Shown: positions 1 through 4,026 of the stretch, piece by piece | How positions within the stretch are numbered: position 1 is the stretch's first letter | How the letters are laid out: each line of letters begins with the position of its first letter | DNA from: a virus | Lineage: Duplodnaviria > Heunggongvirae > Uroviricota > Caudoviricetes | Direction: 5' to 3' (one strand) | Length of the DNA: 4,026 nucleotides | IMG/VR virus record: IMGVR_UViG_2698536418_000015 | Notes under the pieces: model-generated | Databases searched by the model: none | The model's input: only the letters and a program-made list of their open reading frames with translations | Told to the model about the DNA's origin: nothing | Position numbers and translations under genes: made by a program

Positions 1-89
1 CCATCTTTCTGGACAGACACCACCCGTTTACCGGTTAATAAATCAAGGCGCGCCTGACGCAGCGCCTGCAGTTCAGCGACTGTAACCAT
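1..89 (-). CDS. W: Head-tail joining protein gpW-like, N-terminal part only; the gene continues past the window start
   Basis: Minus-strand ATG at 87..89 follows GGAGGAG (revcomp of about 93..99). Translation MVTVAELQALRQARLDLLTGKRVVSVQKDG matches the remembered start of lambda gpW (…LMTGKRVATVQKDG…). Sits immediately downstream of the terminase large subunit, as in lambda (Nu1-A-W), and overlaps its 3' end by 17 nt. Confidence 0.85.
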   Translation of the reverse strand, partial: MVTVAELQALRQARLDLLTGKRVVSVQKD

Positions 90-1943
90 TCACTCCTCCG
101 GACAGCTTCGCTGCCAGTTCTTTCAGGGTTGGCCGGGTCGTCTCTTCTTCCCGGGATTTTGCCAGTACAGCCAGATCAAGCTGCCAGCGTTGCACGGACA
201 CACGTAATGCCGCGTAGGCATACACCAGGCAGTCCAGCGCTTCGTTACGCCGCTTTTTGTTATCCCACAGCAGACGCATCTTTCCTTTTTCCCACTTCTC
301 CACCAGCTCTTCCGCCACCAGTTGCTGCGCCTCTGTCTGCGAAAAAATCTCCGGATCATCAGGAAAACGGATGGCATACGACGTGGCTTCATCCGCAGGC
401 GTGGGATCGGCTTTCATACGGGCATAGAGAATTTCTTTTGCGGTATCCGTTCCCACTTCACACAGATACACGCCCCGCTGATTGCGGGTTTTTGGCATGG
501 TGATCACCGGCTTGCCATAGACAGATGCGCCTTTTACCGGCAGCACCCGGAAAACACCGTGTTTTTTTGATCTCTGATAAACAATTTCACCATCGATCCC
601 CCCGGTGTCCCAGCAGACACGGGAAATAGTCATTTCGGTGCCATCCGCATGGCGGTATTTTTTGTTGATCGCCGCATCCACACGTAACAGCGTCTCTTCC
701 TCATCAGGACGCCCCATAATGATGATTTTATCCACCAGAAAGGCTTCCTCTCCCGGAGCCCATCCCCAGACATACATCTCAAAACGGTTTCGCTGCGAGT
801 CAATGCCCGCCGTCAGATAAACCACCCGGGCAGGCACCGCCGCCGTGTAACGCACCACCTTATCCATCAGTACCTGGTGATCGAGTTTTTCGCCCACGGC
901 CTCTTCCCAGGTCTCGCCCAGCGTGGTGTTCACAAAGGTTTTCAGGCCGTTGGGATCTTTCAGTGCATCCAGCCAGTCATAGACAATCTGTACCCAGGTG
1001 GTGAACGGACTGTACGCCGTCCAGATATGGAACGTGATGGAGCGCGGCGGCGGAATTTCATCACCCCGGGCGCTGAAAAACGTCAGACCGTCACGGGTCC
1101 ACATGCCCGTGTTTTCACAGATCCACCGCCCGTTGCTCTGGTCAAGCTCAGACTGATGGATCACGCAGCCATGATGTTCACAGAGGTAGAAAACACTTTC
1201 AGGGCTGTCCTTCTCCCATTTAAGCCCAAAAGGCGTGGACTCATCGCCAAATTTCAGATACTGCTCCTCCCCACAGTGCGGGCAGGGCACATAAAAACGC
1301 ATAAAATGCGCCGACTCGTTAGCGGCTTTTTCGATCTGGCAGGTGCCTTTGATTTTAGGCGTCGAGCCGCGAATGGATTTTGGCCACACCGACCCCTCAA
1401 TACGCTTATCCCCCAGCAGGGTTGGCGAGCCCTCTTTTTCGACATCCGGCTCGAACGAGGAAAGTTCGTCATAGCAGACCACGTCCACGGATTTTTCACG
1501 GTAGTTTTTGGCGGCAGCGCCGCCCNNNNNNNNCCCAGCCATGGGGAAAGGTCTTTCAGGCATGGCACGTTCCGAATCGTCGCCTCCACGTGAGACTTCA
1601 TAAAATCTTCAGCGGCAGAATCCGTGGGCTGAAAAAGCAGACTGTTTCGGGATTTATGCTCAATAAAATACCCGACCACCCCCAGCAACATCTTTGTATA
1701 GCCAACACGGGCAGATTTAATCAGGTTAACCGTGCGAACCTGGTCGTTACCCATACAGTTCATAATGGCGATCTGGAATGGCAGCGTTTTCCATTCTCCC
1801 TCACCATATGAAGATTCTTTAGGCAGATAATAATTTTGATCAGCCCATTCAACTGCCGTCATTGGTACAACCCTGACCAGAGGCTGCAGCGCAACCGAAA
1901 CGGCAGCCATCATATTATTCAGTTGTTGCTCTGATATATTCAT
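73..1943 (-). CDS. A: Terminase large subunit (lambda gpA family); reading frame interrupted by an 8-N gap at 1526..1533
   Basis: The N-terminal part (ORF 1254..2000, true ATG at 1941..1943 giving MNISEQQ…TAVEWADQNYYLPKESSYGEGEWKTLPFQ…SARVGYTKMLLGV…FIEHK) and the C-terminal part (ORF 73..1563: GGAAAKNYREKSVDV…FLGDKRIEGSVWPKSIRGSTPK…CPHCGEEQYLKFG…FHIWTAYSPFTTWVQIV…FVNTTLGETWE…YLTAGIDSQ…WGWAPGEE…RVCWDTGGID…SKKHG…KGASVYGKP…WDNKKRRNEALDC…) are colinear with lambda gpA as remembered. The two parts are in different frames only because of the N run. Stop TGA at 73..75. Confidence 0.95.
1526..1533. other. Run of 8 ambiguous bases (assembly or masking gap) inside the terminase large subunit gene
   Basis: Literal nnnnnnnn in the sequence. 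Flanking codons give …LKDLSPWL on one side and GGAAAKNY… on the other. Remembered lambda gpA has about 20-25 residues between these two motifs, so the gap probably stands for roughly 60-70 nt of unresolved sequence. Confidence 0.9.
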
Positions 1944-2424
1944 CGAGTAAATCCGGTAATTTATCCCCTGCCCGCGCACACTGATTTGCCCCCTTCGCAA
2001 TAAGGGTTTTCAGATGGTCAAGATGGCGCGGTGTTAAATCAGGAAACTGTCGCTGCATGGATAAAGGGATGGAATCAAGCGTACTGGATAACGCCATTGC
2101 CAGCTTACTGAGGGCAAAAATACAGAACCCGGTGTCAATAAGTTTTCCTTTTGACACCTCATTTTTTAACTGCTGTGTAACAGCCTGTTCTGCTGTCAGT
2201 TCCCATCTGGCAATAAGCAATTTCTCCTCATAGTCGTCTTCGCTATCGCCATCAGGCACATCGTTTTTACTTCTCCTCAGATACGATATGTAAAAATCGC
2301 GCCAGGCATCCAGATCCAGTTGCCCTCGCTTATTCGATATCGGGGCACCCGGCAATTTCTGCAATCTGCGAAGCTGGCGATCGGTCAGACTTAAATGCCT
2401 GGCAACTTCAGTCTGCGTAGCCAC
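1915..2424 (-). CDS. nu1: Terminase small subunit (Nu1-like), with a divergent N-terminal winged-HTH DNA-binding domain and a lambda-like C-terminal gpA-interaction region
   Basis: C-terminal half (TGFCIFALSKLAMALSSTLDSIPLSMQRQFPDLTPRHLDHLK…LPDLLDEYI) matches lambda Nu1 as remembered (TAFCTFVLSRIAGEIASILDGLPLSVQRRFPELENRHVDFLK…IPGLLSEYI). N-terminal roughly 60 aa (ATQTEVARHLSLTDRQLRRLQKLPGAPISNKRGQLDLDAWRDFYISYL) is HTH-like but unlike lambda. First codon is GTG (2422..2424) directly after an in-frame stop, with GAGGTGAGGA upstream. Start lies 196 nt from cosN (lambda 191) and the gene overlaps the gpA start by 29 nt, as in lambda. Confidence 0.9.
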   Translation of the reverse strand: MATQTEVARHLSLTDRQLRRLQKLPGAPISNKRGQLDLDAWRDFYISYLRRSKNDVPDGDSEDDYEEKLLIARWELTAEQAVTQQLKNEVSKGKLIDTGFCIFALSKLAMALSSTLDSIPLSMQRQFPDLTPRHLDHLKTLIAKGANQCARAGDKLPDLLDEYIRATTE

Positions 2425-2470
2425 TCCTCACCTCGCAAAAACTCTCACCTCACAATCACAACAAAACCGG

Positions 2471-2482
2471 TCATGTCCGGTT
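2471..2482 (+). repeat. cosB R-like element, copy nearest Nu1 (R1 position): TCATGTCCGGTT
   Basis: Exact 12-nt direct repeat of 2501..2512. Embedded in AACCGGtcatgtCCGGTT, which has local dyad symmetry. Lies about 138-149 nt from cosN, comparable to lambda R1. Confidence 0.6.
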
Positions 2483-2500
2483 TACATGTCTGTTTTTTGT

Positions 2501-2512
2501 TCATGTCCGGTT
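2501..2512 (+). repeat. cosB R-like element (R2 position): TCATGTCCGGTT
   Basis: Exact 12-nt direct repeat of 2471..2482, about 108-119 nt from cosN. Separated from the third copy by an AT-rich spacer. Confidence 0.6.
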
Positions 2513-2558
2513 CACAGAAGACCTGTTTTTATATTTTTCATATAGTTAACTTGAAGAG

Positions 2559-2570
2559 AAACCGGACATG
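2559..2570 (-). repeat. cosB R-like element (R3 position), inverted copy: plus strand AAACCGGACATG, revcomp CATGTCCGGTTT
   Basis: Reverse complement matches the 11-nt core of the other two copies. About 50-61 nt from cosN, comparable to lambda R3, and inverted relative to the R2-position copy across an AT-rich spacer, as with lambda R3/I1/R2. Confidence 0.6.
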
Positions 2571-2607
2571 GATCCCGGAAAATTTTCATAAATAGCGAAA
2601 ACCCGCG

Positions 2608-2619
2608 AGGTCGCCGCCC
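2608..2619 (-). other. cosN cohesive-end sequence; the minus strand reads GGGCGGCGACCT, the lambda 12-nt 5' overhang
   Basis: Plus strand 2608..2619 is aggtcgccgccc, the reverse complement of GGGCGGCGACCT. It is preceded in phage orientation by …CCGTTACG (plus 2620..2627), matching the lambda right terminus as remembered. Expected staggered nicks are between 2619/2620 on the minus strand and 2607/2608 on the plus strand. Confidence 0.9.
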
Positions 2620-2631
2620 CGTAACGGCCCG

Positions 2632-2650
2632 GATCGCCGGAAAGGACCCA
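2632..2650 (-). other. cosQ-like element (needed for cos cleavage at the end of packaging in lambda)
   Basis: Revcomp of about 2636..2650 is TGGGTCCTTTCCGGC, matching the GGGTCCTTTCCGG segment that sits at the same distance from cosN in the lambda right end, as remembered. Exact boundaries are uncertain. Confidence 0.5.
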
Positions 2651-2654
2651 CGAA

Positions 2655-2671
2655 ATGATAATGATTATCAT
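2655..2671. repeat. Perfect 8-bp inverted repeat with a 1-nt centre: ATGATAAT g ATTATCAT
   Basis: Read directly from the sequence. The same palindrome is present at the lambda right end as remembered. Function unknown; a possible protein-binding site. Confidence 0.7.
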
Positions 2672-2825
2672 CTATATAAGGTTTATCACAACATGTGTGT
2701 ACGCCATCAAACCACGAGAAATAATCAATTATGACGCAGGTATCGTATTGATTGATCTGCGTCAAATTAACGTAAAAGCAACTTCAGATAATACAAATCA
2801 GCAACACTGAATATGGGGAAACATT

Positions 2826-3059
2826 ATGTCATCAAAGAACAGAACCCGCAGAACAACAACCCGCAACATCCGATTTCCAAACCAGATGATTGAACAAATT
2901 AACATCGCTCTTGTTCAAAAAGGGTCCGGGAATTTCTCAGCCTGGGTCATTGAAGCCTGCCGCCGGAGACTGTGCTCAGTACAAAGAGTTTCGCCTGAAG
3001 CAAACAAAGAAAAGAGTGACATTACTGAATTGCTCAGAAAACAGGTCAGACCAGATTGA
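2826..3059 (+). CDS. Small ribbon-helix-helix-like DNA-binding protein (77 aa), homolog of the conserved lambda right-end ORF; possibly YlcI/DUF3950-like
   Basis: ATG at 2826 with GGGGA about 8 nt upstream. The N-terminal 50 aa (MSSKNRTRRTTTRNIRFPNQMIEQINIALVQKGSGNFSAWVIEACRRRL) are nearly identical to the remembered lambda right-end ORF (MSTKNRTRRTTTRNIRFPNQMIEQINIALEQKGSGNFSAWVIEACRRRL…). The pattern basic tail, RNIRFP strand and two helices is RHH-like. The C-terminal roughly 27 aa are unrelated to lambda. The YlcI/DUF3950 family assignment is from memory. Confidence 0.8.
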   Translation: MSSKNRTRRTTTRNIRFPNQMIEQINIALVQKGSGNFSAWVIEACRRRLCSVQRVSPEANKEKSDITELLRKQVRPD

Positions 3060-3116
3060 AGCAATTTAGATAATCGTGCAGACTACGCCCCCTCATATCA
3101 CATGGAAGGTACTACA

Positions 3117-3527
3117 ATGGCTCAGGTTGCCATTTTTAAACAAATATTCGATAAAGTGCGAAATAATTTAAACTATCACTGGTTTTATTCTGAACTAAAA
3201 CGTCACAATGTCTCACATTACATTTACTATTTAGCCACAGAGAATATTCATCTTGTTCTTGAAAACGATAATACGGTTTTAATAAAAGGACAGGGTAAGG
3301 TTGTAAATGTAAGATTTTCAAAAAATAAATGCCTTATAGAAGCCACCTTAAAAGGATTCAAATCAGGAGAGTTATCATTTTACGAATACAGGAAAAATCT
3401 TGCTACAGCAGGGGTTTTCAGATGGATTACAAATATCCACGAAAACAAAAGGTATTACTATACCTTTGATAATTCATTACTCTTTACTGAGAACATTCAG
3501 AACACTACACAAATATTTCCGCACTAA
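3117..3527 (+). CDS. AT-rich moron gene encoding a hypothetical 136-aa soluble protein; possibly DUF1398 (YbcV/YdfO-like), family assignment unverified
   Basis: The ORF is open from 3102, but the ATG at 3117 has a GGAAGG Shine-Dalgarno 7 nt upstream (3104..3109) and is the likelier start. About 30% GC (counted on 3121..3240) against about 58% in the terminase region. No obvious hydrophobic segment. Motifs HWFYSEL and RYYYTFDN. Inserted between the lysis cassette and cos, where lambdoid phages carry morons. Confidence 0.75.
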
Positions 3528-3535
3528 ATCATAAC

Positions 3536-3564
3536 GTCCGGTTTCTTCCGTGCCAGAACCGGAC
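3536..3564. other. Hairpin: 8-bp perfect stem GTCCGGTT (3536..3543) / AACCGGAC (3557..3564) with a 13-nt loop, 9 nt after the moron stop codon
   Basis: Arms are exact reverse complements. No U-rich tract follows on the plus strand; on the minus strand it is followed by GUUAUGAUUUA. Could be an RNA stability or termination element in either direction, but it is not a canonical intrinsic terminator. Confidence 0.35.
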
Positions 3565-3834
3565 TCGCTGGCATGATGAAATATGTGTACCCGGTAACCC
3601 CGGTGTGCATCGTTTTTGATTATTCCCCCACACTTGTGCAGAAGGAGTTCCCCGTCAGGCTACAGTCATAATTAATGCAAGAGTACAGCGACGATACAGC
3701 GCACAGAAATAAATCAGGTATCCATTGACTTCACAAAGACGGTGCATAGCATCGACTGGAGTAATTGCGTAAATTGAACTCTTGGCACACTTTAGCCACC
3801 GGCGAATCTTCAGCGGATTATCCTTGGCCGGTTT

Positions 3835-4026
3835 TTATCTGAGGCATTGCTCTCGAATGTATAGCTGTGCCCCTTCAAGTTGTTTTTGCATTATTATCAG
3901 TCGCGCTCTGAGGGTGAAATAATCCCGTTCAGCGGTGTCTGCCAGTCGGGGGGAGGCTGCATTATCCACGCCGGAGGCGGTGGTGGCTTCACGCACTGAC
4001 TGACAGACTGCTTTGATGTGCAACCG
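3835..4026 (-). CDS. Rz: Spanin, inner-membrane subunit Rz (i-spanin), C-terminal part; the gene starts beyond the window end
   Basis: Minus-strand translation RLHIKAVCQSVREATTASGVDNAASPRLADTAERDYFTLRARLIIMQKQLEGAQLYIREQCLR matches the lambda Rz C-terminus as remembered (…RRLHIKAVCQSVREATTASGVDNAASPRLADTAERDYFTLRERLITMQKQLEGTQKYINEQCR). The frame runs open to position 4026. Stop at 3835..3837. Confidence 0.9.
   Translation of the reverse strand, partial: RLHIKAVCQSVREATTASGVDNAASPRLADTAERDYFTLRARLIIMQKQLEGAQLYIREQCLR
3897..4026 (-). CDS. Rz1: Spanin, outer-membrane lipoprotein subunit Rz1 (o-spanin), C-terminal part, embedded in the +1 frame of Rz
   Basis: The +1 frame within Rz reads …SQCVKPPPPPAWIMQPPPDWQTPLNGIISPSERD, then stop TGA (revcomp of 3897..3899). 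This matches the proline-rich C-terminus of lambda Rz1 as remembered. The start is outside the window. Confidence 0.85.
   Translation of the reverse strand, partial: GCTSKQSVSQCVKPPPPPAWIMQPPPDWQTPLNGIISPSERD

Follow-up and report, generated by a model that had tools for sequence, protein, structure and literature searches.

An intact DUF1398 (YbcV/YdfO family) gene paired with ynfO at the lysis/packaging junction of a lambda-type prophage of Escherichia coli

Background

The DUF1398 family (Pfam PF07166) includes the Escherichia coli proteins YbcV, YdfO and YcgX, as well as the product of gene lambdap78 of phage lambda, and published work still assigns it no function. Three paralogs are present in E. 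coli K-12: YbcV in the prophage DLP12, YdfO in the prophage Qin and YcgX next to bluR. Here we describe a member of this family encoded in a 4,026-nt stretch of DNA (IMG/VR record IMGVR_UViG_2698536418_000015, Caudoviricetes), hereafter the window, which represents the lysis/packaging junction of a lambda-type prophage of E. coli. An earlier note, made from the sequence alone, had singled out a 136-aa open reading frame (ORF) at positions 3117-3527 as an AT-rich, horizontally acquired moron, and had proposed a role in superinfection exclusion, anti-phage defence or lysogenic conversion. The ORF proves to be an intact DUF1398 allele under selective constraint and the second gene of a ynfO-DUF1398 unit. 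It is already known and annotated: an identical protein is present in RefSeq, the structure of a paralog has been solved, and lambda carries a homolog. DUF1398 is among the few lambda genes that have no known role, and a defined phenotype would be of interest to phage biologists.

Several published data sets touch on the family. In a genome-wide CRISPR interference map of lambda, knock-down of lambdap78 gave plating efficiencies of 1.9 and 1.3, and the gene was scored as non-essential (PMC10695390). The ydfO gene was the top induced gene after imidazolium ionic-liquid shock, rising 12.5-fold on the array and 117-fold in quantitative polymerase chain reaction (PMC4077768). In a pdhR mutant the ybcV mRNA was 10-fold lower, and a PdhR site was located between ynfO and ydfO by systematic evolution of ligands by exponential enrichment (SELEX) (PMC7660256). 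Over-production of the T4 protein MotB, which co-purifies with H-NS, raised ybcV and ybcW more than 1000-fold (PMC7827196), and in an evolved strain ybcV was up together with bglH, bglF and kilR (PMC7181518). Under colistin, ybcV insertions showed a mild depletion (PMC9687012), and a ybcV over-expression clone was scored in a glycogen screen (PMC2853380). By transposon sequencing only, ydfO was listed as 'essential' (PMC5821084), a result that, in our opinion, would fit the exclusion of insertions from H-NS-coated DNA. One published claim has to be set aside: the protection from oxidative stress ascribed to YdfO over-expression (PMC4077768) is a gene-name mix-up with YfdO, as the paper cited for it (Wang et al. 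2010, PMC3105296) reports YfdO of CPS-53 and never ydfO.

Family identity and fold

The 136-aa protein matches the DUF1398 profile of Pfam over its full length (positions 1-119 of 119) with an E-value of 3e-43 and a score of 147.1 bits (cut-off 22), and it matches the nuclear magnetic resonance structure of E. coli YdfO, determined by structural genomics (PDB 2HH8), with an E-value of 2.9e-67. By these two matches the identity of the protein as a DUF1398 member is near certain, and the tentative assignment of the earlier note proved correct. RefSeq likewise names the ORF, at the same coordinates in the prophage of E. coli O111:H2 strain 12A, a 'DUF1398 domain-containing protein' (WP_000079508.1). 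Four residues are invariant in the family (N43, A98, G99 and Y114) and five are near-invariant (L27, Y35, T41, V100 and W103); the window protein carries all of the conserved residues (N43, A98-G99, W103, Y114 and others).

The predicted topology consists of two tandem helix-helix-strand-strand-strand units, which is the fold of YdfO (2HH8). The AlphaFold model used was built from a 43-sequence alignment and reached a predicted local distance difference test (pLDDT) score of 89.6; a run from 18 close E. coli sequences (pLDDT 46.9) was discarded. A fold search of BFVD returned nothing at E <= 0.001, and the fold is an orphan. An internal duplication was considered at the sequence level and was not significant (hhalign probability 3%; shuffle z 1.3).

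The family alignment contains no family-wide conserved Asp, Glu, His, Cys or Lys that would hint at catalysis. In the 136-aa protein no transmembrane or hydrophobic segment was found (maximal 19-residue Kyte-Doolittle mean 0.39), nor any signal peptide or lipobox, the N-terminus being devoid of a hydrophobic core. Hydropathy and family alignment thus agree with the earlier observation that the protein lacks a membrane segment and a recognisable catalytic motif, and by the same features a Bor-type or envelope lipoprotein was rejected. The isoelectric point (pI) is about 9.4 in the E. coli prophage copies and ranges from 5.2 to 10.1 across the family; nucleic-acid binding, read from the basic pI, was therefore rejected as a family property.

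Selection and recombination

Across alleles dN/dS (the ratio of non-synonymous, dN, to synonymous, dS, divergence) is about 0.26, and 85 copies of this particular allele contain 12 synonymous segregating sites against a single non-synonymous one. These figures identify a real, constrained gene, and the protein is clearly maintained by purifying selection. A stop-free run of equal length arose once in 5,000 shuffles of the AT-rich stretch.

The central block of the protein (residues 57-90, a loop and helix 3) has a dN of 0.33 and a dS of 0.87, giving a ratio of about 0.4, and its synonymous divergence is about twice that of the flanks. Diversifying selection in this block was considered and not found; with dS also raised, a dN/dS of about 0.4 points to a segment that is older and mosaic. 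In one allele (P0005) the central block of the window's allele (residues ~57-92) sits within the flanks of another. As far as allele sequences can tell, recombination evidently shuffles segments inside the gene.

Start codon and regulatory signals

The ORF runs on the plus strand from the ATG at 3117 to the stop codon at 3525-3527, opposite to Rz, Nu1 and the terminase large subunit gene (terL). The Shine-Dalgarno sequence that had been reported for it is present (GGAAGG, 3104-3109, plus strand, 7 nt 5' of the ATG), and both this motif and the start are kept in lambda. Starting from an in-frame ATG at 3102, the protein would have 141 aa, yet no Shine-Dalgarno sequence precedes this codon. The lambda gene, which its record marks as 'Predicted by GeneMark' only, is annotated from a GTG at 47575 (177 aa), which is 41 codons too long; the ATG at 47452 (136 aa) is favoured, since homology, the Shine-Dalgarno sequence and all relatives agree on it.

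The hairpin noted earlier just downstream of the stop codon is real and consists of 8 bp plus one G-U pair (-13.4 kcal/mol). As no T-tract lies behind it, it is not a canonical terminator. The second hairpin, followed by TTTTT, is the better candidate for an intrinsic terminator of the ynfO-DUF1398 unit; a terminator scan flagged neither of the two. No sigma-70-like promoter was found upstream by a promoter scan on the plus strand. The 17-mer AACAGGTCAGACCAGAT, which is identical to the K-12 genomic-SELEX site of PdhR, overlaps ynfO at its 3' end and lies 60 nt 5' of the DUF1398 start; it scores 10/14 against the PdhR consensus, and lambda keeps its core GGTCAGACCAGATTGAA.

Base composition

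The GC (guanine plus cytosine) content of the ORF is 31.4% (30.7% at third codon positions, GC3), compared with 53.1% in both the terL gene and the Rz fragment. The immediate flanks have 41-48% GC, and 200-nt windows touch 57.5% only in places. The value of about 30% given in the earlier note for the ORF was thus accurate and the ORF is indeed far more AT-rich than its surroundings, while the 55-58% given for the backbone was slightly high. Two features of lambdoid morons are present, namely a distinct base composition (31.4% against about 53% GC) and presence or absence of the gene between related phages.

In most of the Enterobacteriaceae examined the gene has 33-43% GC and its flanks 46-55%, the lowest values (31%) being those of the lambdoid copies; the exception is Klebsiella pneumoniae, where the gene has 55% GC and its flanks 59%. 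Low GC content is, by this comparison, a trait of the family and not a sign of recent arrival. Wild-type lambda has the gene, lambdoid contexts never show it without a YnfO/YlcI partner, and low GC marks the family in most Enterobacteriaceae examined: the gene has long belonged to the right ends of lambda-type genomes and is not novel or recently acquired cargo. The proposal of a foreign gene newly acquired by the prophage is thereby not upheld.

The slot between Rz and cos

The gene layout places the ORF, as had been claimed, in the slot between Rz and the cohesive end (cos), against the late operon. The order terL-Nu1-YnfO-DUF1398-Rz was found in all IMG/VR loci that carry the allele and are long enough to show the flanks. 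The genes of the ynfO-DUF1398 pair are 57 bp apart on the same strand and are invariably linked in lambdoid loci, the cassette beginning about 200 bp from the cosN site and reading inward, against the late operon. In phage Kati the pair is located beside differently organised packaging genes. DUF1398 genes that have no YnfO partner occur in ycgX-type, Kluyvera and Pseudocitrobacter loci.

The content of the slot differs between lambdoid phages: the Rz fragment is common to 385 phage records, DUF1398 being encoded in only 43. Phage VT2phi_272 has bor only in this slot and vB_EcoS-640R1 has bor and an HNH endonuclease, both without DUF1398. In cdtI an unrelated ORF adjoins Rz and DUF1398 is absent from the Rz-proximal part of the slot, the only part retrieved.

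Distribution

Among 5,426 complete E. coli genomes the allele is represented at >=99% nucleotide identity by 1,063 records (roughly a fifth), and a copy within megablast range is present in 2,717 (about half). A homolog is encoded in 43 cultured phage genomes, and the identical protein occurs in six phage records (PhiR49_1, PhiR49_1_star, Kati, Chlobot and two of ev099). Intact copies survive in the cryptic prophages DLP12 and Qin.

The genuine homologs found beyond Escherichia and Shigella belong to Citrobacter, Klebsiella, Kluyvera, Raoultella, Pseudocitrobacter and Salmonella enterica subsp. diarizonae; more distant taxa gave weak partial matches only. An exhaustive search matched 189 clusters among 1.84 billion representatives; at this sensitivity the DUF1398 family is therefore small and essentially enterobacterial. 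The Kluyvera and Pseudocitrobacter copies are stand-alone chromosomal genes amid stress and housekeeping genes and have no conserved partner, so that their context is uninformative on function.

Contigs of about 3.5 or about 48.5 kb from assemblies of Pseudomonas, Kitasatospora, Bradyrhizobium, Flavobacterium, Cohnella and others also carry copies about 71-76% identical. They have the look of contaminating lambda control DNA, used as a sequencing spike-in, and not of real occurrences. A metagenome-assembled genome of 'Candidatus Nanosynbacter' carries the exact E. coli allele, probably by a binning error.

Layout of the window and packaging signals

Features of the 4,026-nt window. Positions refer to the first letter of the window as 1.
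Feature	Position	Strand	Remarks
Terminase large subunit (gpA-like, terL)	73-1943	-	Interrupted by a run of eight N at 1526-1533
Terminase small subunit (Nu1-like)	1915-2424	-	
Three GTCCGGTT repeats	2475-2482, 2505-2512, 2560-2567	+, +, -	Between Nu1 and cosN
cosN cohesive-end sequence	2608-2619		Reverse complement of GGGCGGCGACCT, 12 bases
ynfO, 77-aa YlcI/YnfO (DUF3950) protein	2826-3059	+	PF13132, E=2e-20; NF041551
17-mer AACAGGTCAGACCAGAT	3040-3056		Identical to K-12 PdhR genomic-SELEX site between ynfO and ydfO
DUF1398 (YbcV/YdfO/lambda p78 family) coding sequence	3117-3527	+	136 aa and stop
Hairpin directly after DUF1398 stop	3536-3564	+	Arms GTCCGGTT / AACCGGAC
Second hairpin, then TTTTT	3583-3617	+	-16.4 kcal/mol for 3575-3625
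Rz (i-spanin), 3' part	3835-4026	-	PF03245; cut by the window end

Positions 2400-4026 of the window are 99.9% identical to the prophage of strain 12A, which carries a complete holin-lysozyme-Rz cassette and head genes. The N-run splits the terL ORF in a mechanical ORF list, and a sub-threshold Rfam match to DicF that spans it was dismissed as a meaningless chance hit. The cosN site was placed by GGGCGGCGACCT, which we take to be the lambda cohesive-end sequence.

The 8-mer GTCCGGTT occurs five times in the window against 0.07 copies expected. The three copies between Nu1 and cosN are probably binding sites of the small terminase (cosB). The other two (3536-3543 and 3557-3564) form the arms of the hairpin 3' of the DUF1398 stop; as lambda retains the left arm of this hairpin and lacks the right one, their link to cosB may be coincidental. 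The Nu1-like protein aligns to the lambda Nu1 profile over the C-terminal two-thirds alone (profile positions 62-163 of 164), and the DNA between Nu1 and cosN cannot be aligned to lambda, although both sides of that stretch can. The partial profile match and the unaligned DNA suggest a packaging specificity (cosB and the Nu1 N-terminus) that differs from that of lambda.

Possible function

DUF1398 appears to be an accessory gene that is not needed for lytic growth, because lambda scored lambdap78 as non-essential for plating in the knock-down and because copies persist in cryptic prophages and as chromosomal genes. We consider it rather likely that the gene is such a lytically dispensable accessory gene, conditionally expressed from the prophage, and that it encodes a soluble, non-enzymatic cytoplasmic binder of some partner. 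The product, a small soluble protein, would then be neither an enzyme nor a part of the virion. The mechanism, that is, the binding of a partner and the conditional expression, is put forward more weakly than the rest: the protein may act in the cytoplasm by binding a protein or a nucleic acid, the gene is probably silenced by H-NS in the prophage, as it is AT-rich, and host signals (stress, PdhR) probably switch it on, as the regulated transcription of the paralogs ydfO and ybcV from cryptic prophages indirectly suggests. If the gene is silent in the prophage and induced by the host, any benefit would go to the lysogen.

A bolder proposal sees in the ynfO-DUF1398 cassette a conflict module with an orphan fold at its base, either an exclusion factor expressed from the prophage or a counter-defence or host-takeover protein transcribed early from the side next to cos, with YnfO as its DNA-binding regulator. 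We regard it as doubtful. If true, it would explain the retention of the cassette by lambda-type phages, its dispensability in laboratory hosts, and its adjacency to further conflict-related genes, namely bor and lambdap79, the trigger of the defence system Vulcan.

An exclusion or anti-phage defence gene of the prophage, acting alone or with YnfO, is the role that had been suggested earlier, and we find it unlikely. The gene occupies an accessory slot next to the position of lambda bor, stays intact in cryptic prophages and varies in presence among lambdoid phages, and its lambda neighbour lambdap79 does interact with a defence system, as a trigger. However, the defence-protein models of PADLOC-DB 2.0 gave no credible match (a single stray Csx23, E=0.023, 12.7 bits), diversifying selection is not seen even in the central block, and the homologs of Kluyvera and Pseudocitrobacter lie outside defence islands. 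The literature searched ties the family to phage resistance by nothing beyond a single gene-loss listing.

A gene of benefit to the phage itself, acting early or against host defences, is similarly improbable; from its place at the cohesive end it might be among the first DNA in the cell and be transcribed by the host RNA polymerase before the remaining genome comes into play. The position of the cassette close to cosN and its inward reading would suit such a gene, and dispensability in a laboratory host is expected if its target is absent there. In the accepted last-in-first-out model, the right end of lambda DNA is ejected first. This order, which would favour an early role, is restated in a 2023 study (PMC10287942), but the same study reports that in vitro either end leaves first, in a ratio of about 50:50. 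Against an early role speak also the failure to find a promoter and the intact copies in defective prophages and as chromosomal orphans, which would be unexpected for a gene of the lytic cycle only.

In a toxin-antitoxin-like pair DUF1398 would be the toxin, with YnfO as a small DNA-binding antitoxin or repressor. The small upstream gene on the same strand, its invariable linkage in lambdoid loci and the resemblance, by eye, of YnfO residues 13-50 to a ribbon-helix-helix protein might point in this direction. YnfO shows no detectable similarity to Arc in BLASTP and no ribbon-helix-helix match in Pfam or PDB, only that to DUF3950, its homologs being too uniform for a useful profile. Moreover, DUF1398 occurs without YnfO in the ycgX-type, Kluyvera and Pseudocitrobacter loci, opposite-strand ybcW parts the two genes in lambda, and the ybcV over-expression clone was viable enough to be scored in the glycogen screen. 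Such a pair is therefore very improbable.

The family is labelled 'head protein' in PHROG 413, which the window protein matches by sequence, and in RefSeq phage records (e.g. NC_001416, NC_019711, NC_049953), and 'putative envelope protein' in older records; nothing supports these labels, and the strand of the gene, its dispensability and the sequence features speak against them. A virion structural protein, for which they are the only argument, can be dismissed almost entirely, as the gene is transcribed against the late operon, is non-essential for plaque formation of lambda, lacks a signal peptide or membrane segment, is found in cryptic prophages that have no head and as an orphan gene on chromosomes, and in lambda rests on a GeneMark prediction.

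The window makes the question of the role no easier than lambda or K-12 already do. The value of the analysis lies in placing the gene in a conserved YnfO-DUF1398 unit, and in clearing up the misleading labels and the YdfO/YfdO mix-up.

Comparison with lambda, the K-12 paralogs and bor

Among the closest described genes is lambdap78 of lambda (NP_597781), whose product is 76% identical to the window protein and whose map position and orientation (47042-47452, minus strand) are equivalent. Positions 3043-3704 of the window align to lambda 47527-46867 at 82%, this being one of three conserved blocks. The lambda order is YlcI-like gene (48109-48303, minus strand), ybcW, DUF1398, bor and Rz. The first of these, complement(48109..48303) of NC_001416, is an exact ORF between lambdap79 and cos that is not annotated and encodes a YlcI/YnfO-type protein of 64 aa, compared with 77 aa in the window. 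Two blocks of lambda are absent from the window: 445 bp between DUF1398 and Rz, which hold bor, and 630 bp between DUF1398 and the YnfO-type gene, which hold ybcW/lambdap79, so that in lambda the two partners are separated by a gene on the opposite strand. From the block alignment and the IMG/VR loci, the YnfO-DUF1398 pair is the stable element of the slot, and bor and ybcW come and go.

A 2026 preprint reports that lambdap79 is what activates the NADase defence system 'Vulcan' and that recombination with Qin removes it from lambda escapers. The window (2972-3042, compared with lambda 47528-48157) has the Qin-type arrangement, without the Vulcan trigger ybcW/lambdap79.

The K-12 protein YdfO of Qin (2HH8) is a different allele, and residues ~57-90 are those most diverged from the window protein. 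The prophage of the window keeps a complete lysis and packaging region, whereas Qin is defective. Of the other two DUF1398 paralogs, YbcV of DLP12 is found in a lambda-like arrangement with borD and ybcW, and ybcV-type copies are equally AT-rich (31.4% GC); YcgX-type copies are only about 44% identical, have no YnfO partner and are located outside a lambdoid late region. The bor gene of lambda shares with DUF1398 the slot and the orientation against the late operon, but Bor, a lipoprotein that carries a signal peptide, is unrelated to DUF1398, and either gene occurs without regard to the other.
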